Both the position numbers and the translations under genes were made by a program. Of a stretch of DNA of 64,000 nucleotides, positions 15,124 through 57,110 are shown in pieces. Source of the DNA: a virus (lineage: Duplodnaviria > Caudoviricetes); IMG/VR virus record IMGVR_UViG_3300028591_000078, positions 64,001 to 128,000 of that record; one strand, given 5' to 3'. The first letter of the stretch is position 1; each line of letters starts with the position of its first letter. The notes under the pieces are model-generated. The model was given only the letters and a program-made list of their open reading frames with translations. It had not been told where the DNA came from and ran no database searches.

Positions 15124-17061
15124 ATGTTATTAAAAGATTATCCAGAAGGATATGATCTAACCTTAATGAATACAATGTTTAGGTTCGGAGAGAAAGATCC
15201 GATAACTGATAAGTGGACAGAAAGTTCAATAGATTTGATTATTAAAGATAATCATACAGGAGATAAGTTTGTAGAACATATAGAGAATCCTGATTATGAA
15301 TTCTATATATCTAAAGAAGAACTTCCTCATCATATGTTTTTCATAGATAAGGATGAGTGTGAGAAGATAGTAGTTCCATATAAGAATGTATTAAGGACTA
15401 TAGCGGATTTGACTGGAAACACAAATATGTTCTTCGAGAATATAAGGAATGGATTAAGTAAAGCTAATAAAATACTTCATCAACATCCGAGAGTATTCTT
15501 ATCTGATATGGATATAGAAGATCATTACATGTTTAGATTTGCTAGAGATTATACTAATAGTATTAATCCTATATCTAAAGCATTCTTCGATATAGAGGTT
15601 GACTCAATCAATATGATTGGAGATTTTCCAGAGTTTGGAGAGTGTCCAGTAAATGCAGTATCATTGATAGATGAGTCTAATAATATGGTATATGTATTCT
15701 TCTTAAGGAATGAAGCTAATCCTCTTATAGAGGAGTTTGAGAAGAGTATAGGACCAGAATTAATCAAAGAGTTAAAAGAGTTTCTGACTAATGCAGTAGG
15801 TGGTTGGAAACAAGCTCATAGATTTGGTATAGATACTCTTGATTTCAAATTCTTAGCATATGATGAAAAAGATGAGATCAAGTTAATAGCAGATCTGTTT
15901 AGAGCAATCAATATATTAAAGCCAGACTTTGTATTGGCATGGAATATGGGATTTGATATTCCATATATAATAGAGAGAATCAAGGCTTTAGGATATGATC
16001 CTAAAGATATAATGTGCCATCCAGATTTTCCGGTTAAAGAGGCATATTATGTGATAGATGAGAAAAATAAAAATGAGTTTGCAGAGAGAAACGACTTTGC
16101 AAGGATTAGTTCTTATTCAGTATTTTTAGATCAGCTTATACAGTTTGCATCTAGAAGAAAAGGACAGTCGGCAGTAAAGTCTTATTCTCTGGATGATATA
16201 GGAGATATGGTAGCAGGAGTTAGAAAGTTGAGCTATAAGCATATAACTACTAAGATTGCTGAGTTGCCATATAAAGATTATAAGACATTCATATTCTATA
16301 ATATCATGGATACTATAGTACAGAAGTGTATTGAAAAGAAGACTGGTGATATAGATTTCGTATTTAATAAAGCGATTACAAATAACACCAGATATTCTAA
16401 GATACATCGTCAGACTGTATATCTGGCTAATAGAGCCATTGCTCATTTCTATTCATTAGGATATGTAATGGGTAATAATATTAATGGTGGTAATAAGCCA
16501 GTTAAGTTTGCAGGAGCCTTTGTAGCAGATCCGAAGAAAGCATCTAATTATTCTAGGATAAAGGTTAATGGTATACCTATCAATGCTTATAATAATCTAA
16601 ATGACTTTGACTATAATAGACTTTATCCGAGTATAACTCAGGAGTTTAATATGGCTCCGAATACTCAATATGGTAAGGTTACGATAGTAGATCAGATGGA
16701 TCCGAATGAGAATAGATTTAATAGTGATGTATGGGAAAGACAGATTCAGTATATGGAAGATCTTCAGTCTAATGTATATATAGAATTCTGTCATAGATGG
16801 CTTGGTTTGGCAAGTTATAGTGAACTCATTGATGATATCTTAGAGTATTTTTATACTATAAGAATGAGTCAAAGGCCTATACAAGTATTTAATACTGAAG
16901 GAAAAATAAAACCATTCGAAAGTATACCAGTAAATGGTAAACTTAATCCATTCATTCATATGGATAATATTATAGTAAAGCCATTTGAGCATTATTATCC
17001 ATTAGATCTATCATTAAAGGAGAAAGTGATCAATGCAGTCAATAGTACCAATAGATTTTAG
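15124..17061 (+). CDS. Split family-B DNA polymerase, subunit with 3'-5' exonuclease and motif A
   Basis: ExoI FFDIEVD, ExoII AWNMGFDIPY, ExoIII YNIMD, motif A DFDYNRLYPSI. Motifs B and C are absent. Confidence 0.92.
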   Translation: MLLKDYPEGYDLTLMNTMFRFGEKDPITDKWTESSIDLIIKDNHTGDKFVEHIENPDYEFYISKEELPHHMFFIDKDECEKIVVPYKNVLRTIADLTGNTNMFFENIRNGLSKANKILHQHPRVFLSDMDIEDHYMFRFARDYTNSINPISKAFFDIEVDSINMIGDFPEFGECPVNAVSLIDESNNMVYVFFLRNEANPLIEEFEKSIGPELIKELKEFLTNAVGGWKQAHRFGIDTLDFKFLAYDEKDEIKLIADLFRAINILKPDFVLAWNMGFDIPYIIERIKALGYDPKDIMCHPDFPVKEAYYVIDEKNKNEFAERNDFARISSYSVFLDQLIQFASRRKGQSAVKSYSLDDIGDMVAGVRKLSYKHITTKIAELPYKDYKTFIFYNIMDTIVQKCIEKKTGDIDFVFNKAITNNTRYSKIHRQTVYLANRAIAHFYSLGYVMGNNINGGNKPVKFAGAFVADPKKASNYSRIKVNGIPINAYNNLNDFDYNRLYPSITQEFNMAPNTQYGKVTIVDQMDPNENRFNSDVWERQIQYMEDLQSNVYIEFCHRWLGLASYSELIDDILEYFYTIRMSQRPIQVFNTEGKIKPFESIPVNGKLNPFIHMDNIIVKPFEHYYPLDLSLKEKVINAVNSTNRF

Positions 17062-17686
17062 TATAGTAGAGAGATTGAAAGAAGTTTTCACTCTATTTAA
17101 AGTAATAGACTTCGCCATCATAGAAGGTGGCGGAGTTAATATATATGGTATGAATTATGAGCATAGTATCTTAAAATATACAGTCATAGATCCTATAGCA
17201 GGATTACCGCCACTAGTGATAATAGACTCTTCATCTTTAGCACCAGCTAAATATAAAGAACAGAAATACTTCTTAGTAAACTCTACGGTTATAGTAGCAG
17301 AGTCAGAATTATCTGAATTAGACTTTGTATTCTATTATCAGCATATCTATTCTGGGTACTCTGAAGCTAAGAGTTTATTTAAAGAGATTGCAATCTCCAA
17401 TATAACTTGCCATATAGAGCATATTCAGAAAGAAGCTAGTTTTGCTATGCAGATCTTATCTATGAGAGCTGCAGATGGCGTACAATACTATAAGTATAAT
17501 GGATATATGATGTCCTTATTTGTAGGAATTCTTCCTATAATATCTTCTGATGATGTACAGTTAGATATTATAGATAGACCAGATAATCCATGCTTTATAG
17601 GACGCTTTACAATAAAAAAGAAAAATGGTTTGGTATTAAAAGTATTTCTTAGATTTCTAAAGATAGGAATGAACCCTGTAGCGTAA
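17033..17686 (+). CDS. Putative PCNA/gp45-like sliding clamp (217 aa)
   Basis: Overlaps the 3' end of the polymerase gene. N- and C-terminal segments resemble PCNA by eye, and the size fits a two-domain clamp. Confidence 0.45.
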   Translation: MQSIVPIDFSIVERLKEVFTLFKVIDFAIIEGGGVNIYGMNYEHSILKYTVIDPIAGLPPLVIIDSSSLAPAKYKEQKYFLVNSTVIVAESELSELDFVFYYQHIYSGYSEAKSLFKEIAISNITCHIEHIQKEASFAMQILSMRAADGVQYYKYNGYMMSLFVGILPIISSDDVQLDIIDRPDNPCFIGRFTIKKKNGLVLKVFLRFLKIGMNPVA

Positions 17687-17704
17687 TGCTACAGGGCCAT
17701 TTTT
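17674..17704 (+). terminator. Intrinsic terminator bounding array 1
   Basis: CCCTGTAGC/GCTACAGGG stem plus T tract. Confidence 0.8.
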
Positions 17705-19493
17705 AATTCTTTACGTGCTTATGATAATTAATTATGACTAATTCATTATGAAATCCTGATACTTAATTTACGATAATTCATTATTGACGAATTGATAATT
17801 ATTTCAAATTAATTCATTAGATCATGTTGATATTTAAATCACATTAATTTATTAGTTGTGCGTGATATTTACGTATTGTTAATTCATTAGATTAGGTTGA
17901 TACTTAAATCACATTAATTCATTATGGCACCATGATATTTAAGAATTTTTGATTTAATATTGATATTTAATAATTCTTTACAGCTTCTTGATATTTAACA
18001 GCTTATGACTCAATAGTGTATATTGATATATATTCGCTGTTGGTTCTTTAGACAGAGGAGATACTTAAAGCATAGTAATTCATTAAATAGATTTGATAAT
18101 TAATACTTGCTAATTCATTAAAAGATAGCGATACTTATAATCAGGTAATTCATTAAAACTGCTTGATATTTAGTCCACAATAATTTATTTTATCACTAAT
18201 CTGATATGATACTTTGAACCGATTAACTCTTTAGTAGTCTTTGATAATTTAAAGTAATTGATTCATTTACGATTTTTGATGGTTATATATAAATGATTCT
18301 ATAGCTGCCTGATGATACTTAGAGTATGATAATTCATTACAAGTTACTGATAATTTACCTCCTAATAATTCTATACCTCCAACTGATATTTAAATGAATA
18401 TGGTTCATTAGCGCAAATTGATATTTACGGATCAGTAATTCTTTATATGGTAATGATACTTATGAGCATGTAATTCGATAATCGCTTTTGATATGTAATA
18501 ATGTCTGGCTCATTTAATGTTAATGATACCTACACCATTGTAATTCATTAATGATTATTGATATTTAAAACTTTTTGATTCATTAGTATTCATTGATATA
18601 ACCTTATATTCTTATAATTCTATACCTCCAGTTGATACTATAAATACTATGGCTCATTAAAGCAAATTGATACTTACAAATCGCTGATTCATTATCGCAC
18701 CCTGATACTTACAGATTAATAATTCATTATCGCACCCCTGATATTTATTTACCGGTGATTCATTACATTTATTTGATGCATACATGTCAATAATTCATTA
18801 ACATACCTTGATATTTATTTACTGGTGATTCATTAGCTCATATTGATACTTAAAATTCGGTAATTTATTAATTTTATTTGATACTTTCTTTTCTTCAATT
18901 CTTTAACGTAATATGATAATTGCCTTCCTGTGAATCATTATAATATAGTGATACTTATAAAAAGGTGATTCATATTCTTTACGGCGACTTGATAGTTATT
19001 TCTGCTTAACTCATTAACACTGGTTGATATTTACTTGCCTGTGATTCATTAGCTCCAAATGATACTTATGTTTATGTGGTTCATTACTATAATATGATAT
19101 TTTGAATTCACTAATTTATTTAAATTTGTTTGATTCATTATCTATTCCTGATACTTATATCAAACTGTTTCATTGTGCGTTCATGATATTTAGATTTGTT
19201 TGATTCATTTCATATCTATGATATTTTGTGGATTATGATTCAATAGCGTTTCATTGATGCTTATTTTTGTATAATTCATTAAAAGTAAATGATACTTACT
19301 ACCTTTTTGATTCATTACCTTTCGTTTGATGTTTAAGTTCCATTAACTCATTATGCGGCTGTGATATTTACTATTTTTTAATTCATTAAATCGTTTTGAT
19401 ACTTATACAAAATTGGATCTTTTTGTTACATTGATACATATAAAAGTATAATTCAATTTGTACTAATGATACTTAGTGATGCATGATTCATTA
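17704..19493 (-). ncRNA. TIGR-like dual-repeat guide-RNA array 1 (about 50 units of 35 nt)
   Basis: Plus strand reads TRATTCATTA-N8-TGATAYTTA-N8 repeated, with no ORF. An early promoter on the minus strand abuts the right end. Confidence 0.8.
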
Positions 19494-19527
19494 ATATAAT
19501 ATACAGCCCAAAAACCCTTTATTTACG
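19489..19527 (-). promoter_or_regulatory. Early-type promoter driving array 1
   Basis: Minus strand reads CGTAAATAAAGGGTTTTTGGGCTG-TATATTAT-ATTAA-TG, matching the early consensus including the upstream CGTAAA...TTT element. Confidence 0.7.
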
Positions 19528-19574
19528 AAAAGGTGAACATATTAATAATCTATAGAAAGGAGCTGATTATAACA

Positions 19575-21854: not shown

Positions 21855-21898
21855 AAACTCCCAGTGCACATATAGTGCACTGGGAATTATTTTGTCGC

Positions 21899-22930: not shown

Positions 22931-22951
22931 GATTATTTTCCTCCTTTCCTA

Positions 22952-30397: not shown

Positions 30398-30398
30398 T

Positions 30399-30845
30399 TT
30401 ACTCTCCTTTTAGCCTCTTATTTCCAGATATCATTCTATTAGTCTGGAGAGACTGTGTATTCTCATGATGTATTGTTACATTATGCTCTATAGCATCGTG
30501 AAGTCTGGTATTATCTATCAGAATTTCTTCACCATGCACTAATTCTGTAGCTCTTTCTTCTCTATCAAAAGGATCATGTTTATTAGTCCATTTTGTCTGA
30601 GATACTACAGTGTTAGTTTTAGACTCTTTATCATCAAGAGTCTTCTCTAAGACACCAAAATATCTATATGCTTTCCTAAGAGGAATATCTATAGACTTTA
30701 CAGTATCTTCTACTTCTACTTCAATAGTATTAGCTCGTCCTGCATATGCCTTATATAAATGAGGCTTATAGCCTTTGCTGACAAGAATATCAGCAAAGGC
30801 CTTAAGGTTAGCATAGTCAGGATCTCTAATGATTATTTTACCCAT
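30399..30845 (-). CDS. Hypothetical protein
   Basis: Coupled to the RNAP gene (TAATG) with GAGGAGG RBS. Confidence 0.65.
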   Translation of the reverse strand: MGKIIIRDPDYANLKAFADILVSKGYKPHLYKAYAGRANTIEVEVEDTVKSIDIPLRKAYRYFGVLEKTLDDKESKTNTVVSQTKWTNKHDPFDREERATELVHGEEILIDNTRLHDAIEHNVTIHHENTQSLQTNRMISGNKRLKGE

Positions 30846-32983
30846 TAGTAATCCTCCTCATCTTCAATATGGATAAACGGATCAATGATCTTTCTATCAT
30901 CACCTTCACCTTTAACTCCTTCAACTATGTGTTCAGTATTATAGAGGAAGTCTTGAGGTTTAGTCATAAAGAACAGATCAAGGAATGAAGGTTTATTCTT
31001 TCTGAATGTAAGAGGATTATACAGAGTCTTACTAAGTCTCTGATAACTCATCGTTACAGTTACAGAAGGATTGTCTGTTAAAGCTCCATTAAGAGTCAAG
31101 ATCTGATAAGGAGCGTCAGGAACAGACCAATCTGGATTCTCTAGGATCAGCTCAGAATCTCTCAGCTGATTTGCGAGTATGATCTCACAGTGTACACCAC
31201 TAATAGTGATATCACCTTCAATGATAGCTTCAATGAATGTCTGAAGCAACTGATGTCTGTCCATAGATTTTGTGATAGCATTCTTATTGATGACATCCAT
31301 AATTCTATTCATAGCCTTAGACAGCTCATTATTATGGATGATTACAAGGAATATCGGAATGTCTACCAGATACTGTAATGGTATGATAAGTTTATTATCA
31401 TCTCCAGGTATAGCTTTACGTCTGATTACCTCATTAAGCTCATTAGTTATATAGAGCTTATCAAGTTCCTCAGTACCAATACTTACCTGTTTACCATTAG
31501 GATCTTCTATAATGAAGTCTGTTATATACTCATTATAGTGCTCTGAGTCTTCAGAGCTATAAGAATCGTCATCATAATCACTCTTCTGGAAATCATCTTC
31601 ATTCTCCATACATATAGAGTCTGCATTAATGATCATATTAAATCCCTTAGTAGGAATTCCAGATACAAGCTGTATGATATTACCATCTACCTCGAAGTAA
31701 GTAGAGAATTCTACAACCCATTTCATCTTCTTGATAATTGTCTCAAGCAGATGCTTTGCAGACAGAAGTCTCTGAGTAAGCTGAGAAGTCAGAATCTCCG
31801 CAGCCATCTTACCTACAAGTATATCATGGTTTATATATGCAAGATCTCCATAGCACTTATAGCATACTCCATGTCCTCTAGCTCTAGAAAGACAGGTCAT
31901 AGGAGACCTAAGATATATAGTTTTACCTATAAGATGTGTATCATTTTCAGATATTACAAACTCTTCACCATCAGGTCTGAATCTATAATATCTATCTACA
32001 TACATCTTAAGGAATTTTTCATTAGTAATAGTGATAACCTGATAGTTAGGACTATGACAATCATAAGTCGGATCAGGATTTATAAAAGTATCGGTATTAT
32101 TTAGTCCAAGTATTCTAGCAAATGCACCAGAGTCACCGACATTTACTTTCGAATACAACTGAGCTGTTCTACCTGTACTAGAATCTATAAATATAGACAG
32201 AGGATCATTTACACCACCAGTGATAAAACTTCTATTGATGATGGTTGGGAATACACCGCCCTGTCCGTTAGGCTTAGATCCTATATTAATGGAGAACTCT
32301 TTATACTGTCTAGGGTTAATACCTTCGCCAGCTCTCCAAGAATCTGCCAAACAATGATCATGACCAAGATACTTCTTAGCATCTTTCATCATATCTATTG
32401 CTTTATAGGTTATATCCATACCTACATTCTTTACATCTTCAATCGGAACTCCAGAGAGATCTGCATGAATTGTGTCATAGAATGCAGGGTTAGCTTTCAT
32501 AAGATCGATACTATCTTCAAGATTGATAGTATTAGCAAAATACATAGAGAACTCATCGACTACACTCAGCTTAGTAAGAGCATCATCGATGATATTATTC
32601 ATCTCTATATTAGACTTCTCTTTACGATATACTCTGATAAAGAAGTCATCTATATATTTCTTAATAGTCTTTCCTGTGATATTCTCTGGGAAGTATATAT
32701 GTTTCGGTTCTATATTGCCACCAGCAAATATGATCAAATACCACATGATTAGATTGAAGAACAGATCGACCATATACAACTGACAAGATTTGCCATTGCT
32801 GAAGTTTATGGTTACATATCCATTCTGCATTGTCTCTGTTTCAATACCATCTTTGAACATGTTAAGCAGACCATCATAATATGAGTTCCATGACGAAACC
32901 GTGATATCTTCTATTGAGATATCACAAACTCCAGTCTTTGCAAACTCTGCAAATGGTCCATAGTTTTCATAGTGTTCTAACAT
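30845..32983 (-). CDS. Multisubunit phage RNA polymerase beta' C-terminal subunit (probably non-virion RNAP)
   Basis: Bridge helix GRTAQ..SK..VGDSGAFAR, zinc site RSPMTC...VCYKCYG, trigger loop TQRLLSAKH. Early promoter at 33056-33070(-). Confidence 0.9.
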   Translation of the reverse strand: MLEHYENYGPFAEFAKTGVCDISIEDITVSSWNSYYDGLLNMFKDGIETETMQNGYVTINFSNGKSCQLYMVDLFFNLIMWYLIIFAGGNIEPKHIYFPENITGKTIKKYIDDFFIRVYRKEKSNIEMNNIIDDALTKLSVVDEFSMYFANTINLEDSIDLMKANPAFYDTIHADLSGVPIEDVKNVGMDITYKAIDMMKDAKKYLGHDHCLADSWRAGEGINPRQYKEFSINIGSKPNGQGGVFPTIINRSFITGGVNDPLSIFIDSSTGRTAQLYSKVNVGDSGAFARILGLNNTDTFINPDPTYDCHSPNYQVITITNEKFLKMYVDRYYRFRPDGEEFVISENDTHLIGKTIYLRSPMTCLSRARGHGVCYKCYGDLAYINHDILVGKMAAEILTSQLTQRLLSAKHLLETIIKKMKWVVEFSTYFEVDGNIIQLVSGIPTKGFNMIINADSICMENEDDFQKSDYDDDSYSSEDSEHYNEYITDFIIEDPNGKQVSIGTEELDKLYITNELNEVIRRKAIPGDDNKLIIPLQYLVDIPIFLVIIHNNELSKAMNRIMDVINKNAITKSMDRHQLLQTFIEAIIEGDITISGVHCEIILANQLRDSELILENPDWSVPDAPYQILTLNGALTDNPSVTVTMSYQRLSKTLYNPLTFRKNKPSFLDLFFMTKPQDFLYNTEHIVEGVKGEGDDRKIIDPFIHIEDEEDY

Positions 32984-34232: not shown

Positions 34233-36356
34233 GTGTATAAGATGGCTACTAAAGGATTATCAGATATGATGGTAATTCAAAAATTTAAAGATGAAATTCG
34301 ACCTGTACTAAGGTTGACATTTCCACATTTATCAGATTATGAGATAGATATGGCTGTGGACTATTCTTGTATTAAGAGAATGAAGAATGGCCAAGCATAT
34401 ATAGACAATAATTATACCAATGTAAAGGTTGATACTACAGTTCTACAGCTTACTGAGTATATTCTGAGTAGAGAACCTATCATAACTACTCAAGGTGTAC
34501 TATTTAAGAAGCATGGAACTGTACCTAATCCATTATATAGTCTTATACAGGAATTCATAGATAAACGAATTGCTTATAAGAAAGAGATGTTTAAGTATCC
34601 TAAAGGTAGTGAGATGTTTGCAAAGTATAACCTGCTACAGCTCTTAGCAAAGCTGGATGCAAATGCTACCTATGGAGCCATGGGTATGTATAGTTGCGTA
34701 CTGTATAATATCTATGTAGCATCAGCTATAACTGCACAAGGCAGATCTGGAATTTCTGCAGCAATATTGCTGATGGAAGGATTCCTAAGTAATAATGTAA
34801 AATTCGGTTCTTTGAATGAGATAGTAGTATTCATCAAGAATATAATCACCGAGCCTAGAAGATACAAAGACTCAGATATACTTGATGATGATATTACTAG
34901 AGAAGAATGTTTTTATAAGATCATGACTACATGTGGATTTGACTATATTCCTACAGAGAAAGATATGCAGATAGTATGGGATATGCTAGGTCAAGTTACA
35001 CAAGAAGATCTGAATAGATTATTCTATAAGAATAATCTGTATAACTTCATGGACAATAGTAGTATGCGTAAAGCAGTAATCTATATCCTTCAGAAGTTGG
35101 ATAGGCCTTTCATGGATCCTAATAAACCTCCGAAGTGTATATCTGTAGAACTTGAAGAGTTCTATCAGATACTATTTGAGTATGTATATTATGGATATCA
35201 GTATATAGATAGACTCGATCGTACAGAGAATATGATAAGAAATGTATCTATTATAACAGATACAGATTCTACTATCATATCTCTTGATGCATGGTATAGA
35301 TATACTTTAGCATTCACATATGATGTGCCGATGGAGATTAAGAAGATAGTAATTAATCCATTCATTCATATTGATGTAGATGAGTGGGGAGATCCTAAGA
35401 AACCTTATCAGCCATTCGAGCATATTGAACCTGAATACGATTATGACTTTTATACAGATGAAGTAATAGAACGAGAGAAGTTCATCAATCCTATGAAGAT
35501 ATGTCCTCAGGAAGGATTGAAGTATTCTATCATAAATATCATGTCTCATATAATAGGAAAGCTTTGTGTAGATTATATGAGAAGATATGCAATCAATTCT
35601 CATTCTGTAGATAAGAATAGACCTGATTGCCTATTGATATTGAAGAATGAATTCTACTTCGAACGAGTTCTGAATACAGATAATAAGAAGAATTATGCTG
35701 ATATACAGAGACTTCAGGAAGGTAATATAGTACCAGATGAGAATGCTCTTGATGTTAAGGGTCTTCCGATGACTAAATCTACTCTTCCTAAGAAGACTGT
35801 AAAAGCTCTGAAGAGAGTACTTAGAGAAAAGATACTTGCTCCAGAGGTTATAGATCAGATAGATGTATTGAAAGCTATCAAGATAGTAGAGAAGGATATC
35901 TATGAATCTCTGCTTAATGGTAGTAAGGAATACTACATGCCAGTTAAGATTAAGTCTACAGCAGGTTATGAGAATCCTATGAGAATATATGGATATAAAG
36001 CAGCATATGCTTATAACGCTCTTAGACTTGATGGTATGGAGGCAATAGATCTTGATTCTAGAAACAGTGTAGATATTATGAAAGTAGATATTACTACTAA
36101 GAATATCGAGCATCTAGCTCAAGATAATCCTATACTATATGAAAAGCTTACCAAACTCTTATCAGAACCTGAGTTTGATGGTGAACTTAGCATGATAGCA
36201 ATACCACTAAATGAACCAGTACCAGAATGGGCAAAGCAATTTATAGACTTTGCTACTATCATAAATAATAATGTTTCTAACTTCCCTCTTGAAAGTATAG
36301 GGCTGTTTAGAAACAATAAGTCTAATGTTAATGAGAGTAATATTCTGAAGATATAA
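34233..36356 (+). CDS. Split family-B DNA polymerase, subunit with motifs B and C
   Basis: Motif B KLDANATYG, ITAQGR, motif C ITDTDS, KKNYA, LDVKG. Confidence 0.92.
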   Translation: MYKMATKGLSDMMVIQKFKDEIRPVLRLTFPHLSDYEIDMAVDYSCIKRMKNGQAYIDNNYTNVKVDTTVLQLTEYILSREPIITTQGVLFKKHGTVPNPLYSLIQEFIDKRIAYKKEMFKYPKGSEMFAKYNLLQLLAKLDANATYGAMGMYSCVLYNIYVASAITAQGRSGISAAILLMEGFLSNNVKFGSLNEIVVFIKNIITEPRRYKDSDILDDDITREECFYKIMTTCGFDYIPTEKDMQIVWDMLGQVTQEDLNRLFYKNNLYNFMDNSSMRKAVIYILQKLDRPFMDPNKPPKCISVELEEFYQILFEYVYYGYQYIDRLDRTENMIRNVSIITDTDSTIISLDAWYRYTLAFTYDVPMEIKKIVINPFIHIDVDEWGDPKKPYQPFEHIEPEYDYDFYTDEVIEREKFINPMKICPQEGLKYSIINIMSHIIGKLCVDYMRRYAINSHSVDKNRPDCLLILKNEFYFERVLNTDNKKNYADIQRLQEGNIVPDENALDVKGLPMTKSTLPKKTVKALKRVLREKILAPEVIDQIDVLKAIKIVEKDIYESLLNGSKEYYMPVKIKSTAGYENPMRIYGYKAAYAYNALRLDGMEAIDLDSRNSVDIMKVDITTKNIEHLAQDNPILYEKLTKLLSEPEFDGELSMIAIPLNEPVPEWAKQFIDFATIINNNVSNFPLESIGLFRNNKSNVNESNILKI

Positions 36357-36369: not shown

Positions 36370-37353
36370 ATGAACACAATTCTTACGCACACTGGAAAGA
36401 TCTATGTAGATGAAGAAAGGCAGCTTGAATTCCTTACCGTAGGAGACTACGGTAAGGAGAATAATATAAAAGCTAACTTCTTAGGACTGTATAATGAGAT
36501 AAATGGCGTAACTCATCATGATGTAGACTTATCTGAAAAATGGGTTGCAACAATTAGTACTCAGAAAGGTTGTCCAATGAATTGCAAATTCTGTGATTGC
36601 CCTAAGTATGGTTTTCATGGTAATGCAAGTTTTGATGATCTTTGTTATGAGATTGAGACTATACTGAAGAATGAAACTGTAAAGCATACTAAACGCTTTA
36701 ACGTTCATTTTGCTCGTATGGGAGAACCGACGTTTAATGAAAATATAAATAAGTTTGCAAGAGAAAAACTAAGAAGTCTTGTACAAGAGTACATTACTGC
36801 TGATACTATACATCCAGTGGTATCTACAATGCTTCCAAATAATAATCCTAATATTCTACCTTTCATATTTGATTGGGTAGATACTAAGAATTTCTATTAT
36901 AATGGAGAAGCTGGGTTACAATTCAGTATTAATTCTACAGATGAAAATCAGAGAGATCAGCAATTTTCAGGAAAGAGTTTAAGCCTCGATCAGATTTCTA
37001 AAATTGCAGATATGATACTCTATCCTGTAGGACGTAAATATACATTAAACTTTGCTGTTACTGCAGATACTATATTAGATCCTATATGGCTTACAAACCA
37101 TTTTGACCAAGAAAAATTCATTGTAAAGATAACACCGATTCATAAGACTCATTCAGCAGTGAAGAATAACTTCAATGTTACAACAGAGTATACAGATTTT
37201 GATGTATATCGTAAGTTTGAACAACCTTTGGTAAAACTTGGTTGGGATGTAATTGTATTTGTACCAAGTGAGGAAGAAGATAGTGATAGAATCACTTGTG
37301 GAAATGCATTAATAGTTAATAAGGAGGATACTAATAATGAAAACCAAGTCTAA
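36370..37353 (+). CDS. Radical SAM protein, RlmN/Cfr-like
   Basis: STQKGCPMNCKFC (CxxxCxxC), MGEP, LQFSINS and C-terminal TCG. Confidence 0.85.
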   Translation: MNTILTHTGKIYVDEERQLEFLTVGDYGKENNIKANFLGLYNEINGVTHHDVDLSEKWVATISTQKGCPMNCKFCDCPKYGFHGNASFDDLCYEIETILKNETVKHTKRFNVHFARMGEPTFNENINKFAREKLRSLVQEYITADTIHPVVSTMLPNNNPNILPFIFDWVDTKNFYYNGEAGLQFSINSTDENQRDQQFSGKSLSLDQISKIADMILYPVGRKYTLNFAVTADTILDPIWLTNHFDQEKFIVKITPIHKTHSAVKNNFNVTTEYTDFDVYRKFEQPLVKLGWDVIVFVPSEEEDSDRITCGNALIVNKEDTNNENQV

Positions 37354-42390: not shown

Positions 42391-43959
42391 TTGAGCAAAA
42401 TAGAAGTAAGGAGAACAAGTGTAGTCATTAATGACTACACGTTCGGGGATTGCCCTGAGCTTGAGAGAAAGTTTAGATTCTGGGATGAAGTATATTTCAG
42501 AGAATACTATAAAGGAATTAAATATATAGAATCAGAGCATAAACTCTATATTCCGAGATCAATTGACTTAGACTGGGTATCTAGAATTATAGGATCTAAG
42601 CCTAAGTTTATAGATGGGTATGATAAGTATGATAAGAATGGTGATATCTTAATGCAGACTATGCCTAGAGATGATGATCAAAAGACTGCAATGAGATTTG
42701 TATTAGGTCTAGGAGAATATGAAAGATATAGAGAATATCCTAGACAGATGCTTGCTCTTAATACTGGTAAAGGTAAAACTTTTGTAGCAGTATCTACATT
42801 AGCTTTTACTATGATAAAGGGTATTATAATAGCTCCAAATATAGGATGGCTAGATCAGTGGAAAGATAAGATATTAGAGTATACTGATATAAAGCCAAAT
42901 GAGATCTATATGATACAAGGATCTCCTACTATAGCAAGAATACTTAATGGTAGAGATATGTCTAAGTTTAAGGTATTCCTTGCATCTACAGCAACTTTGA
43001 AAGCATATGCTGAGAAGAATGGCTGGGGATATATAACAGATTTGTTTAAGAAGATTAAAGTAGGATATAAAATCTATGATGAAGCTCATTTAGCATTTGA
43101 TTCTATAATGGCTATAGACTATGCTACAAATACCTATAAGACTTTGTATCTTACTGCTACTCCTGGACGGTCTGATGAGAAAGAGAATGAGATTTACCAG
43201 TTATATATCAATCAAGTTCCGATGATAGATCTATTTCATCCAGATGAAGATCCTAGAACACAGTATATAGCATTTAAGTATAACTCAAGACTTAATGCTA
43301 GAGAGCAAGGTAAATGTATTAGTAAGTATGGCTTCAATAAGAATAACTATTGTAATCAAGTAATCCATAAAGAGAACTTTCATAATATACTCCATATAGT
43401 AATGGATATGATTAAGAGAGTTAATGGAAAGACTTTGATCTATATAGCTACCAATGATGCTATACTATTTATATATAATTGGATCACTATCAACTATCCA
43501 GAGTATGCTGGCAATATAGGAATATATACTAGTATTAACTCTGAGAAGAAAGCAGCTAAAGATAAGTTTATCATACTAAGTACAACTAAGTCTTGTGGAG
43601 CTGCTGAAGATATAGATGGTCTAAAGATGACTGTACAGCTAGCAGAACCTATGAAGTCTAAGATATTATCTAGACAGAGTTTAGGTAGAACTCGTGCTAG
43701 ACATACAGTATATCTTGACATAATTGATATGAGCACTCCTGCAACTAAGAGCTATTATTTACAGAGATTACCACTGTTTAATAAGTATGCTACATCATGT
43801 AAAGAAGTATCCTTTAATGATACTACTTTAGCAGATACAGTAAACAGACTATTATCTCAGAGATCTCCTATGATAATAGTAAATCCATTTGAGCATATAG
43901 ATAGTGCTACTAATCCTTTTAGTCACAGATGGATTATAAATCCATTTGTTCATATATAA
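42391..43959 (+). CDS. Superfamily 2 DExH helicase (UvsW-like)
   Basis: LNTGKGKT, YDEAH, TATP, QSLGRTR. Confidence 0.9.
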   Translation: MSKIEVRRTSVVINDYTFGDCPELERKFRFWDEVYFREYYKGIKYIESEHKLYIPRSIDLDWVSRIIGSKPKFIDGYDKYDKNGDILMQTMPRDDDQKTAMRFVLGLGEYERYREYPRQMLALNTGKGKTFVAVSTLAFTMIKGIIIAPNIGWLDQWKDKILEYTDIKPNEIYMIQGSPTIARILNGRDMSKFKVFLASTATLKAYAEKNGWGYITDLFKKIKVGYKIYDEAHLAFDSIMAIDYATNTYKTLYLTATPGRSDEKENEIYQLYINQVPMIDLFHPDEDPRTQYIAFKYNSRLNAREQGKCISKYGFNKNNYCNQVIHKENFHNILHIVMDMIKRVNGKTLIYIATNDAILFIYNWITINYPEYAGNIGIYTSINSEKKAAKDKFIILSTTKSCGAAEDIDGLKMTVQLAEPMKSKILSRQSLGRTRARHTVYLDIIDMSTPATKSYYLQRLPLFNKYATSCKEVSFNDTTLADTVNRLLSQRSPMIIVNPFEHIDSATNPFSHRWIINPFVHI

Positions 43960-45537: not shown

Positions 45538-46311
45538 ATGAATGACAATCCTAATCAAATTGTGAATCCATTTGAGCATTATGATCAGTATGAAAGAATA
45601 TATGATGTAATAATGTATCTTGGGTTTAATACTATACTGAAGTTTAATGTAGACCTTGCTCATTACTCTGATAAGTCTAACAGAGAAATGTTTCATAAAG
45701 AGTTTGAGTATATGAATAGACAGAATATGCCAGTTATATCTATAAGAAGAGATTATGGTTTTTATCTGTCTATAGAGAATCTAAAGGTTATTAATAATAT
45801 AGATAAGCAGATAATAAGGATAGGAATAGAGGAGATTACTTTATTAAGGCAAGCTTTAGCCCAAGCTTCCAGGTGGTTTACGCATCAAGATTATAAAGAT
45901 CTATATGGTGTTCATAATGGGCAACTTATAACAACTAGGAAGGTTAGACCTGTAACTATATCAAACCTTCCATATAATAAATATATAGAGTTCGAACCCA
46001 TAGTATATATGGCAAATGAAGATGCTATTCCTGGAGTCAGAATGACTTTAAGTGATAATGCTAACTTTACTGATATGCCCCTGAACAGATTTATGGGTTT
46101 TAAGTATATAATAGATACATTCAATATGTATCAGTCAGCTCAGAATATGATAAACTATATTGCTAGACCTGAACCAGGACATAATCTATCTTCCTATGTA
46201 GATAATACTAATTATACTAGATATGGAAGAGAGAATGTTACTGGACCAAAAGGTAGAAATGTAGCATGTCAAACTAAAGATCCTACATTAAATGATCTTG
46301 GAAAGGAGTGA
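45538..46311 (+). CDS. Hypothetical protein with N-terminal NPFEH motif
   Basis: Late promoter at 45509, AAGGAGG RBS. Confidence 0.75.
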   Translation: MNDNPNQIVNPFEHYDQYERIYDVIMYLGFNTILKFNVDLAHYSDKSNREMFHKEFEYMNRQNMPVISIRRDYGFYLSIENLKVINNIDKQIIRIGIEEITLLRQALAQASRWFTHQDYKDLYGVHNGQLITTRKVRPVTISNLPYNKYIEFEPIVYMANEDAIPGVRMTLSDNANFTDMPLNRFMGFKYIIDTFNMYQSAQNMINYIARPEPGHNLSSYVDNTNYTRYGRENVTGPKGRNVACQTKDPTLNDLGKE

Positions 46312-46315
46312 TAAT

Positions 46316-46711: not shown

Positions 46712-46728
46712 TTCCGTACCTTTATTTT

Positions 46729-47496: not shown

Positions 47497-47598
47497 AATA
47501 AACTCCTCCTTTTGTATAGAAGTATAACTTATTAAAATGTTGCAGACTTAAAATTAAGACTACTTATATACTATTATAATGAAAAGGAGTGGTGATAG

Positions 47599-48926: not shown

Positions 48927-49016
48927 GACATACAAAAATAAACAGGTGGTTCTCCCACCTGTTTATTTTTTCTTGATACGGTATCAAAGACGCCGCTATT
49001 GCAGCGCCTTTGATTT

Positions 49017-49853: not shown

Positions 49854-49999
49854 TTCTATATCCTCCTAATATGGTTAATAAATTTACTATTATGTTATCC
49901 GACACCACATCTATCTGTATTAAGGAGTATAAATGTATATTATTATTTTGGTACTAACAACCAAGTAAATTTAAAAATATAATCTAGGAGGTATAACGA

Positions 50000-50563: not shown

Positions 50564-50599
50564 ACCATTAAGTAGTCATTTTATAGGAGGTAAACTAAT

Positions 50600-51451: not shown

Positions 51452-51502
51452 GACAATATAAATGGGTATCTTCGGATACCCATTTACCAATGAGGTGTTT
51501 AT

Positions 51503-52204
51503 ATGGCAAATCAGCTTACAGCAGTAACCTTTGACTCTGTATTTGATACAGATATAGGAGTTATAAAGGTGATGCTTGATAAATATGCTAATCCGAAGTT
51601 TATAGATAATGAACTTCTTAAGATGAGCACTATTCGTGAAGATGATACCATAAAGTATCTTCTTGCTTTAAGGGTTAAAAAGAATCCCCTTACAGCTATT
51701 CTGAAACCTGAATATATGGAGTCGGCTGATGATTTGTATGATCAGGTATTTAAAGAGAACTTTCAGGAGATTATTGATAAATCTCAGACTTCAGCTATCT
51801 ATAAAGTAGTACGTGCACTCATGGATACTAATTCTGCTATGGATTTCTATGTAATCTGTGAAGCACAGGTACAGGTAGATATACTGAATAAACTTGATTC
51901 TAGACTCAAAACAGTTATACTACCTGAGGAGAATAACTATAAGTGTTTTCATGACTATGATAATATATTTGTCAAAGACTTTACAGATATGCTCAGAACT
52001 GAGTTTCCTGTAAGTAAGAAGAATATATACTTATCTAGACTAATGTTTAACATGTCTCCTGTTATGGGAGAACTTGTTCCTAGAATGGATATAAACGTTA
52101 TAGTAGGTAGGACTAATAAGATTATGCTTATAGACTACTACGAAAACTTAAAATCAATAAAAATTCCTCAGCAGAAACCTACTGAGGATGAAGCTAAAGG
52201 ATAA
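51503..52204 (+). CDS. Hypothetical protein (possible degenerate HAD fold)
   Basis: VTFDSVFDTD near the N-terminus, GAGGTG RBS. Confidence 0.55.
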   Translation: MANQLTAVTFDSVFDTDIGVIKVMLDKYANPKFIDNELLKMSTIREDDTIKYLLALRVKKNPLTAILKPEYMESADDLYDQVFKENFQEIIDKSQTSAIYKVVRALMDTNSAMDFYVICEAQVQVDILNKLDSRLKTVILPEENNYKCFHDYDNIFVKDFTDMLRTEFPVSKKNIYLSRLMFNMSPVMGELVPRMDINVIVGRTNKIMLIDYYENLKSIKIPQQKPTEDEAKG

Positions 52205-52215
52205 GGAGAAATAAT

Positions 52216-53958
52216 ATGGCAAGCGGTTACATTAATATTTCTAATAGAGTAGATAAGGCTACTCTTAGAGCAGTACAGATTAAGACAATGGATGATCTTA
52301 AGGATATCCTTGCACAATCTTTTGGTCCTATGGGATCAACTACTATTATCCGTAAACAGGGTACGTTCAATAGATATACTAAGGACGGTCATACTATTCT
52401 GAGTAATGTACATTTCAAGGGTGAGATCGAAGAGTCTGTAAGAGAGGATATAGAAGCTCTTACAAGACATACAGTACTTGGTCTTGGAGATTCTTCTACA
52501 TCTATAGTACTTCTTGCAGCAATACTCTTCAAGAAGATGGCTAAACTTGAGAAAGAACTTAATATCCCTCCGGCAGATCTGATAACAGAGTTTAAGAAGG
52601 TTATTAAAGATATATGTGATCTTATTGAATGTCGCGGTACCGAAGCTACTGCAGAAGATATCTATAAGATAGCTCTGATCTCTACCAATAATAATGAAGA
52701 ACTTGCTAAAGAGCTTCAGGTAGTATATGAGAACTTCGGAATGGATGTATTTATAGATGTAACAATCTCTAATACTGAAGAGACTATTCTAAAGTCTTAT
52801 GATGGTCTTACACTCAATGCAGGTTATGCAGAGAATGCATTTATTAATACCAAGGATGGTACTTCTTCTATAAGACATCCTATGATATATGTATTCGAAG
52901 ATCCTATCGATACTCCTGAGATGATGGGATTCCTTGATCTTATCATTCGTGATAATATACTTGTACACTATTCTGGTGAACAGGGTACTTCTCCTGCAAA
53001 CTGTGTACCGACTGTAATAATGGCTCCGAAAATTTCAAGAGATCTGTCTGCATTTATGACTCAGACTGTAGATTGGCTTGGAAGACTTGATCCTGATGTA
53101 TCTAAGCCTCCGTTGAATATTATCACTAATATATATGATAGTGATACTTATTCTGATATAGCTAGACTCTGTGGAGCTAAGCCTATCAAGAAGTATATAG
53201 ATCTTAAGGTTCAGGAAGCTGATATCAAGGCTGGCAGAGCACCTACACCTGATAATATTCATACATTTGCTGGTACTGCAGACATAGTTGAGTCTGATAT
53301 AGCAAAGACTAAGTTTGTAAACCCGAAAGAAATGCTTGATGAGAAAGGTGATTATACACCTCTCTTCCAGTCAATGGTAGACTTCTTAGAAGCAGAACTT
53401 CAGAAGAATATCAATGAAGGCGGAGATATCTCTACTAGAGGCAATATTAAGAGAAGACTTAATGCTCTTAAAGCTAATATGGTAGAGATTGCTGTAGGTG
53501 GTATTGCAGTAGCAGATAGAGATGCTAAGAGAGATCTGTTAGAAGACGCTGTGCTCAACTGCAGATCTGCAGCGCAGAACGGAGTTGGATATGGTGCTAA
53601 CTTTGAAGGACTCAAAGCTTCATGGGATCTATATACTAGAACATCTCCTGCTATATATAATTGTATTAATAAAGCCATAGTAGAATCTTATTTGGAACTC
53701 TCTGAGATGCTTTATAGTACAATGGGTGATGTAGATGCAGCAAAAATTACAGATGAATCTATCGAAAAAGGTATGCCGATGAATATTCGCACTAAGGAAT
53801 TCGATGGTAATGTACTTTCATCTATCAAGGCTGATATAGTAGTACTCAATACTATTGCAGATCTTCTGACTTTGATGATTACTTCTAACCAGTTCTTACT
53901 TCCTACATTCCTTGGTAATCTGTATGATAATGTAGATACCTCAGAATTTAAAAACTAA
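52216..53958 (+). CDS. groEL: Phage GroEL-like chaperonin
   Basis: SFGPMG, TKDGHTIL, GDSSTS, IAVGG, LEDAVLN, GVGYGAN. Confidence 0.92.
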   Translation: MASGYINISNRVDKATLRAVQIKTMDDLKDILAQSFGPMGSTTIIRKQGTFNRYTKDGHTILSNVHFKGEIEESVREDIEALTRHTVLGLGDSSTSIVLLAAILFKKMAKLEKELNIPPADLITEFKKVIKDICDLIECRGTEATAEDIYKIALISTNNNEELAKELQVVYENFGMDVFIDVTISNTEETILKSYDGLTLNAGYAENAFINTKDGTSSIRHPMIYVFEDPIDTPEMMGFLDLIIRDNILVHYSGEQGTSPANCVPTVIMAPKISRDLSAFMTQTVDWLGRLDPDVSKPPLNIITNIYDSDTYSDIARLCGAKPIKKYIDLKVQEADIKAGRAPTPDNIHTFAGTADIVESDIAKTKFVNPKEMLDEKGDYTPLFQSMVDFLEAELQKNINEGGDISTRGNIKRRLNALKANMVEIAVGGIAVADRDAKRDLLEDAVLNCRSAAQNGVGYGANFEGLKASWDLYTRTSPAIYNCINKAIVESYLELSEMLYSTMGDVDAAKITDESIEKGMPMNIRTKEFDGNVLSSIKADIVVLNTIADLLTLMITSNQFLLPTFLGNLYDNVDTSEFKN

Positions 53959-54034
53959 ATGATTCAAAACTATATAATTAGGGATAAGTCTTTTGACTTA
54001 TCCCTATACAATATATGAATCGAGGTGTTTATTT

Positions 54035-54820
54035 TTGACCTTTGAAGAGTATATAAACAATCCTCAAGGCAAAGGAGCTTCAAATACTCCTGGCAGAGGA
54101 ATGTATGAGCAGTATTATGTAGGAGAACTCGATAAATTACTACTCAAGGTTAATGGTAAGATAGAGTATCATCTATATACCAACCATGGTAGATTCTTTA
54201 TTAAGTTTAAGATTCCTCATCATACATACCCCGATTTCTATTATGATGCTGTAGTAGAGTTTTATACAGAAGAAAATTCTTATAAAGTATTACCAGACTT
54301 AAAGAAGTATGATGTAAAATTCTATTCTAATGATCCTAGCTTTACATTCACTTGGGCGTATGCATTCAATAAGAATAATCTTCTTATTAGAGAGCTGCGT
54401 AATAAGTGTTCTAGGATGTCTCTTACTCAGCCTCCTATAGTGAGAAACCCTAGTGAGTCTCCTGGATATGCTAAGTATATATATTATGCATATCTTTTGA
54501 CAAAGCTATATAATCTCTTTGATAAAGCACAGTTTACCCTTAAAGGTAAACCGTTATCTTCTCTCACTGGTTCTATAATGTCATCAGATGCCAAGTTCCA
54601 GCAGAGAGAAAAAGCTCAGAGAGATTATGCAAAGTTCTCCAAGGCTAAGAAAGATAATATAGAACATGCTAACACCAAGAATACTCTAGATAATACTACT
54701 AAAGATATACTTATTGGTAAGACCCCTTTTACTAATAAGACTAGAGTAATAGATCCTTCTAACAAGGTAATCAAGAATACCTCTTTAGTAGGACATGTAA
54801 AGCATACCAAAAGGAAATAG
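54035..54820 (+). CDS. Conserved hypothetical protein
   Basis: TTG start after GAGGTG. Lies between the chaperonin and sigma-like genes. Confidence 0.65.
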   Translation: MTFEEYINNPQGKGASNTPGRGMYEQYYVGELDKLLLKVNGKIEYHLYTNHGRFFIKFKIPHHTYPDFYYDAVVEFYTEENSYKVLPDLKKYDVKFYSNDPSFTFTWAYAFNKNNLLIRELRNKCSRMSLTQPPIVRNPSESPGYAKYIYYAYLLTKLYNLFDKAQFTLKGKPLSSLTGSIMSSDAKFQQREKAQRDYAKFSKAKKDNIEHANTKNTLDNTTKDILIGKTPFTNKTRVIDPSNKVIKNTSLVGHVKHTKRK

Positions 54821-54865
54821 CATTATATATTATAGTACTGAATACAGATAGGAGGATATATCATT

Positions 54866-55756
54866 ATGAGTACTAACCCCTTTATTCATATTGATAAAGA
54901 AATTAATGCACAATCTTTGCCCTCTTATGACATTCCAATCCATAAGTATAGGGCTAAAATTTTGGTAGATGATTGGATACCAAATGCTGAAGATGAAATC
55001 TTCAGACATACTAAGGGCGCTATCATGTTACCCGTATCGGAATTCTATAATATGAAACCCGATATCAATTTCGACTCTTATGTATTATCACCTAAGAGGT
55101 GCTATAACTCAGACGAAGTTAGAGCTCACTGCTGTAAGTATCTGAACTATTTTGAAAAGTTCTATGATACTGATCATGAGCTCTTATCTATATACTATTA
55201 TTTCAAGTATATGATAGATTGCGAACCTAGATATTCTAAAGATATCTTCTTTGCAGATCTTAAGAGATATATACTTGGTAATTCTATTCTTATCAAAGCT
55301 AGGAATATGAATATTGATAACTATAGTCTTAATCTGACATATAAGAATCGTTCTAATCCTGGCTTACAGTATACTGATAAGCATGGTGCAATTCTTATGG
55401 AGATCTCACTGTTAATGAATATGTGTATGCCTCTCTTAACGCACTATCTTTTCAGAAACAAGATACAGACTGTAAAAGACTTCTTGCTTGAAGCCTATGA
55501 TATGATATTTGATCTGTATCCTGACGTTGACATATATAACAAGTTATATGAAACTGCTGCTTCCAATATAAACCACAATGCTACAAAGAACTCCTTACTC
55601 TGGAGCATGCAAGGTATTAGAAGCATTAATACTACTACACATAGTTTAGCAACTGTTGAGAATATCATATTGCAAATCATGATTAAATATTTATACAAAT
55701 CTAATATCGTGTGCTTTAACTATGAGAGTATAATGAGGAATATCAGATATCAGGTT
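54866..55756 (+). CDS. Sigma-like promoter specificity subunit of non-virion RNAP (AR9 gp226/phiKZ gp68 family), exon 1
   Basis: KRCYN, LQYTD....LMEISLLMNMCMPLL and NKLYE match AR9 gp226 as I recall it. Early promoter at 54826, and two genes from GroEL as in AR9 (gp226/gp228). Confidence 0.8.
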
Positions 55757-57110
55757 AGGACTTAAATACAAGTCTCGATGACCCGTCTAGTAGAAATACT
55801 GGATTGTAAACCCTTTGAATTGCTGGAAAACTTTAATACCAGATTGACTACAACGTGATCTGAAAAGATGGGCGTGAATGTTATCGAAAGATAGAAAGAA
55901 CAATCTGGTTGATATATGAGGAAACTCTAAGTATCTTTACAATAAGTAATCAGCAGCTAAGAACCTAAATTTTAGAAAGGAGAAATTTATGAATATAGAT
56001 AATTATAATAAGTATAGAAAGGAAAACCATCCAAATATGAATCCATTTGAGCATGAACGATGGTTACCTATTATATTACCAATGGTGGATCCTAATGCAT
56101 ATCAGATAAGTAGTTGGGGTAGAGTATATTCTAATATAAGTAGAATGTTTCTAACCGCTGCAGAAAGATCTGGATATTATTGTGTAACATTGATGACAAT
56201 AGATGATCAAAGATTGCAAATAGATGTACACAGGTTGGTTGCTATGGCATTTATTCCAAGATATAATGTATATCAAGATACTGTAAATCATATAGATGGT
56301 GTAAAGAAGAATAATGTAGTTACAAATCTAGAATGGGTTACTCAACAGCAAAATGTTGAACACGGATTATTATTAGAATTATCATCTGATAAGATAAATC
56401 CAACAGATAAAGATATACATTTTATATGTAAATCTCTTCAAGAAGGTAAATCATTTGATGAGATTGTACATGTACTTATTCAAGGAAATTCAAAATATGA
56501 TAAAGATTATATAAGTTCTATAGTTGCAGCTATTAGGCACAAAAGATATAGAACTGATATATCTAAATTATATAGCATAGATCACAATAACAGTCATAGC
56601 ACAGCAAATTATACAATATCAGATATACACAAAATATGTGGAATGTTACAAGCTGGAACTTCGATAGAATGCCTTATGAAGGTATTTGGAGTTTCAGAAG
56701 AGAACAGGGTTGACTTTCAGATGTATATTAGTAAGATCTGTAGGAAACTTATATTCAAAGATATATCTGATCAGTATAATATACAATATCCAGAAGGAAT
56801 GCATCCAAAGACTACCAGGTTGAATGATGAGCAAATAGCTAAAATAATAGAATGTCTTAAGCAAGGAAAGAATAGTAGAGAAATTTATATAGATCTATTT
56901 AATATAAATCCTTCAGACATTCCAAGAGCTAAATTCTTATCATTTAAAACATCTATTCAAAATATAAAGAAGAAATATCTAAAACAAGGTTAAAGTTCAA
57001 CGACTATCGAAAGCACACATTTAGTGGAAGTGAGTAGAGTAGGAGAAATCCGAAGTGGAGGGCACCTTAACCATAAAGGAAGGTGAAGATATAGTCTAAT
57101 AAGTATATAG
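55757..57110 (+). mobile_element. Group I intron (IA2-like) with homing endonuclease in P6
   Basis: P GAATTGCTGGAA 55817, Q AATCAGCAG 55948, R GTTCAACGACTA 56995, S AAGATATAGTC 57086, P3 CCCTTT/GGAGGG. Exon U at 55756 and terminal G at 57110 restore the frame. Confidence 0.9.
55989..56993 (+). CDS. Intron-encoded NUMOD4-HNH homing endonuclease
   Basis: YQISSWGRVYS, HRLVAMAFI, VNHIDGVKKNNVVTNLEW, and three C-terminal helical repeats. Confidence 0.92.
   Translation: MNIDNYNKYRKENHPNMNPFEHERWLPIILPMVDPNAYQISSWGRVYSNISRMFLTAAERSGYYCVTLMTIDDQRLQIDVHRLVAMAFIPRYNVYQDTVNHIDGVKKNNVVTNLEWVTQQQNVEHGLLLELSSDKINPTDKDIHFICKSLQEGKSFDEIVHVLIQGNSKYDKDYISSIVAAIRHKRYRTDISKLYSIDHNNSHSTANYTISDIHKICGMLQAGTSIECLMKVFGVSEENRVDFQMYISKICRKLIFKDISDQYNIQYPEGMHPKTTRLNDEQIAKIIECLKQGKNSREIYIDLFNINPSDIPRAKFLSFKTSIQNIKKKYLKQG

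Follow-up and report, generated by a model that had tools for sequence, protein, structure and literature searches.

A short peptide tag on the non-virion DNA and RNA machinery of a rumen jumbo phage changes in concert between phage lineages

Many client proteins can be gathered on one hub by short hydrophobic peptides in the termini or loops of polymerases, ligases, helicases, and nucleases, as with the PIP (PCNA-interacting protein) box and PCNA or the QL[SD]LF motif and the beta clamp, and in phage T4 the C-terminal tails of gp43, gp33, and gp55 dock on the gp45 clamp. Here, we describe a peptide of comparable design in a jumbo phage from the rumen, centered on the motif PFxH and first noticed in a stretch of 64,000 nucleotides (bases 64001-128000, hereafter “the window”) of the 238,365-bp IMG/VR record IMGVR_UViG_3300028591_000078, whose completeness is estimated at 97%. 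The motif proves to be real and under protein-level selection. Its bearers are non-virion enzymes that act on nucleic acids, and between phage lineages it is replaced in concert.

As in PIP-type systems, the motif sits on exposed termini and loops of many replication and repair clients, including the N-terminal extension of a ligase, and a candidate PCNA-like gene (g66, discussed below) adjoins a polymerase gene. However, the phage consensus is unrelated to Qxx[ILM]xx[FY][FY] or QL[SD]LF and is replaced wholesale between related phages, its copies are frequently in tandem, its clients include RNA polymerase (RNAP) and many small proteins, and no clamp loader was found, g66 being a clamp candidate only. 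Given the unrelated consensus and the lack of a detectable loader, the phage peptide is not a member of the PIP or clamp-binding motif families. The likeness to T4 gp45 lies in a docking peptide shared by the replication polymerase and the late-transcription machinery, with the early polymerase (here, the virion RNAP) not involved; the differences are that the RNAP subunits themselves are tagged, with about six copies per enzyme, and that neither sequence similarity to gp45 nor homologues of gp44/62 were found.

The nearest cultured kin of this phage are the Bacillus jumbo phages AR9 and PBS1, with AR9 giving the best cultured helicase match (31% identity). Searches with tblastn against annotated AR9 recovered both halves of the family-B DNA polymerase and four virion and four non-virion RNAP subunits at 25 to 40% identity, together with ligase, DnaB, SbcCD, gyrase, UvsX, primase, and GroEL and, on the structural and packaging side, portal, sheath, terminase, and prohead protease. 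The genome therefore has the AR9/PBS1-like frame of two split multisubunit RNAPs, a split family-B polymerase, GroEL, and AR9-like gene order. Near-identity searches of a phage collection and, with a single protein, of IMG/VR gave no match, and the comparisons below rest on five related whole genomes (G001 to G005) and 80 IMG/VR loci. Positions are those of the window unless marked as genome positions.

The PFxH tag and the proteins that carry it

All 11 PFxH sites that a first-pass annotation had reported in the window are in frame and at the positions it gave, and a twelfth, degenerate copy (MAINPFIP) lies at the N terminus of the open reading frame (ORF) at 13857-14906 (minus strand), whose close homologues read NPFIH where the window copy has NPFIP. 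Across the genome, the ORF set holds 27 copies compared with 1.85 ± 1.3 expected from 200 within-protein shuffles (maximum, 7), and a six-frame census added copy number 28 at the C terminus of a 234-residue protein. This makes 28 copies in real genes, spread over about 21 proteins, so that the seven proteins first named are the right count for the window and too few for the genome. The five other reading frames combined contain 17 copies, i.e., the chance level. Raw pattern counts are uninformative without correction for composition, and an enrichment test was used instead: in an unbiased tri-residue census, PF.H is the most enriched pattern of the proteome (Poisson, 3e-22), and a position-specific scoring matrix (PSSM) places 28 sites at a score where shuffled proteomes yield none. 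The consensus extends to [IV][IV]-N-P-F-[IE]-H-[IMF]-[DE], and PFxH would be the core of a peptide tag of 9 to 10 residues that is attached, often in two to four copies, to proteins of the non-virion DNA and RNA machinery, at their termini or in surface insertions.

It could be argued that such a pattern arises by chance or that it is a DNA-level repeat, such as a promoter, terminator, or recombination site, read as protein. A repeat would fit the proline codon of the tag, which is CCA in 17 of 27 sites (19% genome-wide and 38% for prolines before phenylalanine elsewhere), and the exact 15-mer AATCCATTCATTCAT, which is identical in four tag sites. In contrast, the Phe, His, Asn, and Ile codons are as variable as elsewhere in the genome, it is only in real genes that the copies occur in frame, quite different peptides occupy the same protein positions in relatives, and the observed number of copies speaks against chance. 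This reading is thus effectively refuted, its probability being practically nil. Since the codons for Phe, His, and Asn follow genome usage, selection acts at the protein level, as the first-pass annotation had proposed. The Pro-codon skew and the shared 15-mer may be a trace of duplication, gene conversion, or common ancestry of the tag-coding segments.

Both halves of the DNA polymerase are tagged. The exonuclease-side subunit (15124..17061, plus strand; AR9 g132-like, matching Pfam DNA_pol_B_exo1 and PHROG DNA polymerase) carries its copies in its C-terminal tail between 16909 and 16992, namely, a degenerate KPFES (16909), NPFIH (16945-16959), and KPFEH (16978-16992); because tblastn to AR9 g132 covers residues 38 to 567 only, this polymerase tail is an extension. 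The catalytic (palm) subunit (34233..36356, plus strand; AR9 g152-like) has NPFIH (35355-35369) and QPFEH (35409-35423) in an internal insertion. In two relatives, the palm ORF stops after about 350 residues (G002:148226-149287 and G003:68327-69373), in G003 just after the DTDS motif, which is the site of the tag-bearing insertion of the window phage; an intron, an intein, or a split gene is likely there. Directly after the palm gene, the ORF at 36370-37353 (plus strand) has a weak radical-SAM match (E value of 3e-5, below the cutoff).

The superfamily 2 (SF2) helicase (42391..43959, plus strand; AR9 g156-like) bears NPFEH (43882-43896), NPFSH (43912-43926), and NPFVH (43939-43953), all in its last 25 residues, and the AR9 helicase ends before this tail starts. 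On the transcription side, the C-terminal beta' subunit of the non-virion RNAP (30845..32983, minus strand; AR9 g154-like) has DPFIH (30869-30883) ten residues from its C terminus, and the N-terminal part of a gp226-like fifth non-virion subunit (54866..55765, plus strand; weak PHROG RNA polymerase match) has NPFIH at 54875-54889. The gp226-like gene as a whole (54866-57782), which follows GroEL and a g227-like gene in the same order as in AR9, appears to be split into parts of 299 and 191 residues by a gene for an HNH/NUMOD4 homing endonuclease (55989..56993, plus strand), itself tagged with NPFEH (56040-56054).

Two less familiar proteins complete the set in the window. The first, g90 (45538..46311, plus strand; 257 residues), with an N-terminal NPFEH (45565-45579), is modeled with a pLDDT (predicted local distance difference test) of 86 and has Foldseek matches to PUR-alpha and Whirly proteins; judging from this model, it is probably a binder of single-stranded DNA or RNA. 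The other, g63 (13857..14906, minus strand; 349 residues), is the bearer of the degenerate copy mentioned above (INPFIP, residues 3 to 8, positions 14883-14900), and its low-confidence model shows a disordered N terminus, a coiled coil, and a small beta domain. In the disordered region at the N terminus, most g63 homologues bear a classic AT-hook (KRKRGRPRK), in place of which the window copy has a Q/P/Y-rich stretch.

Genome-wide, the tag is found on four of the five non-virion RNAP subunits, i.e., beta-C (three copies), beta-N, beta'-C, and the gp226-like protein, and on replication enzymes, i.e., the two polymerase subunits (two to three copies on the exonuclease side and two on the palm), the SF2 helicase (three), and DnaB. 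The NAD ligase has two copies in its N-terminal extension, and SbcD, the HNH homing endonuclease, two Zn-ribbon proteins, and an AR9 g242-like protein are tagged as well. Further bearers are g63 and g24 (both degenerate), g90, g151, g208 (one copy at each end), and the 234-residue protein. None of the four virion RNAP subunits contains PFxH, nor does any structural or packaging protein that maps to AR9 (portal, sheath, terminase, and prohead protease); the non-virion RNAP beta'-N subunit, the RecD-like helicase, and GroEL are likewise untagged. The earlier statement that virion proteins are free of the motif is thus correct for all proteins that map to a virion counterpart in AR9; one uncertain exception is a 110-residue PFxH ORF inside the structural block (genome 60639-60971, minus strand), which has no orthologue in the five relatives. 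Almost every copy is located in an extension, terminal or inserted, that is missing from the AR9 orthologue. Of the 28 sites genome-wide, 22 lie within about 75 residues of a terminus, and the others are in the extension at the ligase N terminus, in the insertion of the polymerase, or in two small ORFs, where the copies may be due to chance. Tagged stretches lie outside the regions alignable to AR9 by tblastn, and the AR9 proteome has no comparable enriched peptide, de novo enrichment giving only Zn-finger patterns.

Concerted change of the tag between related phages

Comparison with relatives showed that the peptide itself is private to a lineage. Among the tails of 120 helicase homologues, PFxH occurs only in the closest relatives, and farther out the same tail carries other short repeated peptides. 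Across the 80 IMG/VR loci, the helicase tail shares its peptide with the g90 N terminus, the beta'-C tail, and the polymerase insertion of the same genome, and this peptide differs between genomes. In a permutation test on dereplicated loci (15 to 50 per protein pair), peptides of different proteins were more alike within a genome than across genomes, with p ≤ 0.0002 for four of six protein pairs.

Each of the five related genomes puts a code of its own on the same orthologues and on lineage-specific small proteins: [KRP]GMxY in G001 (32 sites in 21 proteins), CPI[YE][YF] in G002 (11 sites in 9 proteins), [IV]PAx[IF] in G003 (37 sites in 28 proteins, three of the lineage-specific ones being Bro-N DNA-binding proteins), MCx[IV]V in G004 (30 sites in 24 proteins), and [DE]AIxF in G005 (14 sites in 10 proteins). 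The insertion in the polymerase palm bears the local code in relatives, and the N-terminal tag of g90 covaries across relatives. Local codes are also found on the g63 orthologues of G001 and G003, on the HNH orthologues of G003 and G004, and at the start of the unsplit gp226-like orthologues of G003 (541 residues) and G005 (532 residues). Cross-scans between genomes and codes, with regular expressions and PSSMs, gave an almost purely diagonal matrix, and in de novo enrichment GM.Y, PA.I, and MC.I each ranked first or close to first in the genome that uses it. A separate feature of the G001 proteome is its strong enrichment in the collagen-like patterns G.QG and GP.G, whose roughly 60 copies probably belong to a fiber protein with collagen repeats.

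How fast the code turns over can be read from the helicases, where it is kept in 99% of pairs with at least 80% core identity, in 32% at 65 to 80%, and at a baseline of about 10% below that, which places the turnover point below a core identity of about 70 to 80%. Members of the NPFxH clade preserve the tag even as its flanking residues drift, and close orthologues keep NPFIH. The first-pass annotation had called the motif a phage-specific docking code and had suggested a motif search over the proteome and relatives; that search bears the idea out strongly, as the motif is enriched, is conserved in close orthologues, and changes in concert on many unrelated proteins. Such concerted change is very hard to explain other than by a single coevolving reader encoded by the phage, and we infer that one such receptor exists.

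A candidate hub and competing explanations

What might the reader be? The mechanism that we favor, and to which we give about an even chance, is that the tag docks, in the manner of a PIP box or a gp45-binding tail, on one phage-encoded hub that would gather the tagged proteins on replicating phage DNA. Hub and tag would coevolve fast, giving each phage lineage a private code orthogonal to those of its relatives, and recruitment to replicating DNA would include a coupling of late transcription to replication. By analogy, the set of tagged proteins may be likened to the known interactomes of PCNA and gp45. A T4-like coupling of late transcription, as suggested early on, fits the distinction between the tagged non-virion (late) and the untagged virion (early) RNAP, since tagging of the late but not the early RNAP is the expectation from established knowledge of T4 late transcription, and it would find some further support in the weak PCNA signal described next.

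The hub would most likely be g66 (17033..17686, plus strand; 217 residues), a small, fast-evolving protein whose gene overlaps the stop codon of the polymerase exonuclease-side gene. All five relatives, and a sixth contig as well, have a gene of this type, coding for 200 to 218 residues, after that for the exonuclease-side subunit, and g66 is the most diverged gene of conserved position (15 to 26% identity), its family comprising 574 clusters at 50% identity in a representative library. A profile of 60 g66 sequences run against 177,635 PDB sequences gave a single match, to PCNA (1ud9_A), with the N-terminal domain in register (E value of 0.055). The family was not found in AR9 or phiKZ, the former of which also has no comparable tag. 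Of the three partners proposed at first, only this ORF retains its place, by virtue of the weak PCNA signal: ORF 13857 is itself a tag bearer, and ORF 50600 has no family match.

Several observations weigh against this proposal. Taken alone, the PCNA signal of g66 is below significance, hhalign of g66 with T4 gp45 was negative, and no internal domain repeat was detectable by hhalign of its N-terminal with its C-terminal half. The ESM Atlas model of g66 is poor (pLDDT, 0.39) and uninformative, and the Pfam models PCNA_N and gp45 (DNA_PPF) had no match in the genome. The NPFIH code is retained in a relative whose g66 is only 40% identical, so that divergence of g66 is not tightly tied to code change. 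Nor was a clamp loader found: PF13177 (delta-prime) had no match, no RFC-type or AAA+ protein was detected, and PF00004 matched only the P-loop of the RecD-like helicase. Processivity factors of the PCNA fold that work without a loader do exist, namely, UL42 and UL44 of herpesviruses, and a missing loader does not, therefore, exclude a hub with a clamp fold. As for the clients, RNase H, primase, gyrase, UvsX, and SbcC are without a tag, although RNase H binds the clamp in T4. Each RNAP complex would hold at least six tags, and Bro-N proteins, homing endonucleases, and numerous small accessory proteins are tagged too; together, this exceeds what processivity tethering needs and would fit a signal for access or partition at least as well.

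Other receptors were sought with little return. Pfam and PHROG scans, which covered about 60 candidate proteins, were mostly empty, also for conserved non-client proteins without an AR9 match, and PDB profile searches with g235, g3, and g53 gave nothing. Complex prediction of the helicase tail with g209, with the N-domain of g210, and with the folded domain of a Zn/low-complexity protein, all three from the clade-specific cassette described below, returned no answer and is evidence neither way. Two candidates were set aside, with g90 more likely to be a client than a self-assembling scaffold in view of its modeled PUR/Whirly-type nucleic-acid-binder fold, and g63, considered as a clamp, having a coiled coil and a small beta domain in its low-confidence model and orthologues that are clients. 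The literal Asn-Pro-Phe core recalls the eukaryotic NPF motif and its EH domain reader, but in this phage only; the cores of the relatives lack N, P, or F, which makes the NPF incidental, and no EH or EF-hand domain turned up in the Pfam scans, limited to those 60 or so proteins.

In the main rival reading, the tag might serve as the address of a replication compartment or condensate made without chimallin, in which it would admit or concentrate proteins, its receptor being a shell, gate, or scaffold other than g66. We regard this as possible but doubtful. It would account for tags on homing endonucleases, Bro-N binders, and Zn-ribbon and small lineage-specific proteins, whose only obvious common need is access to DNA, and for the high tag valency on large complexes; a tubulin/PhuZ-like protein is encoded and conserved in three relatives, and a conserved cassette combines a protein whose low-complexity tail is prion-like or SSB (single-stranded DNA-binding protein)-linker-like with two acidic proteins, one tagged at both ends and the other rich in repeats. 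There is a parallel with nuclear import through PicA/Imp1 in chimalliviruses: here too, a jumbo phage with its own multisubunit RNAPs selects its non-virion DNA and RNA machinery along with a homing endonuclease, and specificity differs between phage species. On the other hand, gyrase, UvsX, primase, and RNase H would need entry too, yet are untagged. The chimallin model PF25677 found nothing in the genome at E ≤ 10 (control, 1121 bits on phiKZ gp54), and a PicA/Imp1 search with the phiKZ gp69 protein was empty, this being a single-sequence search of limited sensitivity. Moreover, chimallivirus cargo is reported to be recognized via folded surface patches rather than linear terminal signals (PMC12908238). 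Also comparable in form are the cargo-loading peptides of encapsulins and the encapsulation peptides of microcompartments, which are also short, terminal, carried by unrelated enzymes, read by one self-assembling protein, and variable between systems; here, however, no shell gene or shell candidate was identified, and each genome has more than 20 clients, which are enzymes of nucleic acids. If there is such a compartment for replication and transcription, the orthogonal codes would serve as addresses that admit proteins to it, and their turnover would shut out the enzymes and homing endonucleases of a coinfecting relative, a scenario we hold tentatively and think rather unlikely. Docking on a hub and sorting to a compartment are not mutually exclusive.

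Two further explanations, like that of chance, are weak. Were the tag to bind a host hub (beta clamp, SSB, RNA polymerase, or a chaperone), the codes would reflect different hosts, and the relatives do come from varied gut and rumen samples, with names of metagenome-assembled genomes that include Pseudobutyrivibrio and Peptostreptococcaceae, so that their hosts probably differ. But pockets of host hubs, such as the groove of the beta clamp, are highly conserved, whereas the codes are radically different (NPFxH, GMxY, PAxI, and MCxIV) and turn over at about 70 to 80% identity of phage proteins; none resembles QL[SD]LF, and AR9-type phages carry their own replication and transcription machinery, all of which makes a host receptor improbable. 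A degron or chaperone-delivery signal that directs early or middle proteins to a protease, an unfoldase, or the phage GroEL, so as to schedule their removal or help them fold, is quite improbable. The peptides are terminal, repeated, and hydrophobic plus acidic, like AAA+ protease tags, and the phage encodes GroEL and zincin-type proteases, among them the product of ORF 3655-4827; however, no AAA+ unfoldase was found, AR9 also has GroEL and yet no tags, and the restriction to proteins acting on DNA or RNA would be left unexplained. A copy exactly at a C terminus and internal copies in a polymerase loop suit docking better than cleavage, and a reading of the tag as a cleavage site is ruled out by the helicase copy that ends exactly at the C terminus. 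The zincin at 3655-4827 (minus strand) is a conserved protein of 390 residues with the metalloprotease motif HEVGH and without a Pfam or AR9 BLAST match.

The tubulin-like gene and the cassette, both outside the window, merit description in their own right. PhuZ tubulins are common in Chimalliviridae and nonessential; the protein found here, of the tubulin/FtsZ family and 388 residues long (genome 234208-235374, plus strand; L163:1492-2658), matches Pfam Tubulin (E value of 1e-6), PHROG “tubulin PhuZ” (3.5e-4), and CetZ/FtsZ in the PDB (2e-6). The gene is kept in G001, G003, and G004 (37 to 41% identity), and in each case the genes that come next are those for a 292-residue protein of unknown function (g235), UvsX, and non-virion RNAP beta-C, in this order. 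It is notable that a phage in which chimallin was not detected has a PhuZ-like gene. The clade-specific cassette lies between the RecD-like helicase and gyrase B (genome 216779-217720, plus strand; L009:8779-9720; neighbors at 214273-216609) and comprises g208, acidic and tagged at both ends, g209, basic, helical, and 149 residues long, g210, acidic with G/T-rich repeats, and a protein of 313 residues. In the latter, a Y/N/Q/G-rich N terminus is combined with a folded domain in which C62, H64, C85, and C88 are invariant and with a 140-residue P/Q/G/M/Y-rich tail like an SSB linker or a prion-like domain; the protein may be a condensate scaffold or an SSB. Long ORFs on both strands occur at window positions 4904-6724 and at genome positions 4608-5396, 216737-217780, and 234202-235404; at each of the last three, which lie beyond the window, the true gene is not the longer antisense ORF, and automatic annotation would mislabel these stretches.

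Novelty and meaning of the tag

Docking of short motifs onto a hub is a known principle; as far as the literature was searched, the novelty lies in a proteome-wide tag whose copies are rewritten jointly, lineage by lineage. In the literature on phage nuclei, jumbo phages, and replisome motifs, we found no description of a tag system of this form in phages, nor of any comparable one in AR9-like phages. The clade concerned is large, with more than 1,300 helicase homologues in the protein database at E ≤ 1e-10 in addition to the 574 g66-family clusters.

If the tag works as proposed, it would reveal, for a jumbo phage that has not been cultured, the proteins active on the phage DNA, among them dozens of unknown function, and the codes would form a natural set of orthogonal peptide-receptor pairs, useful as tools and for studies of coevolution. 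Should the codes turn out to be addresses, bacterial viruses would gain their first example of a linear sorting signal comparable to a nuclear localization signal, and the codes would act as a barrier to molecular parasitism. In either case, if true, the tag would offer a testable route into how jumbo phages without chimallin organize replication and late transcription and exclude the machinery of their competitors.

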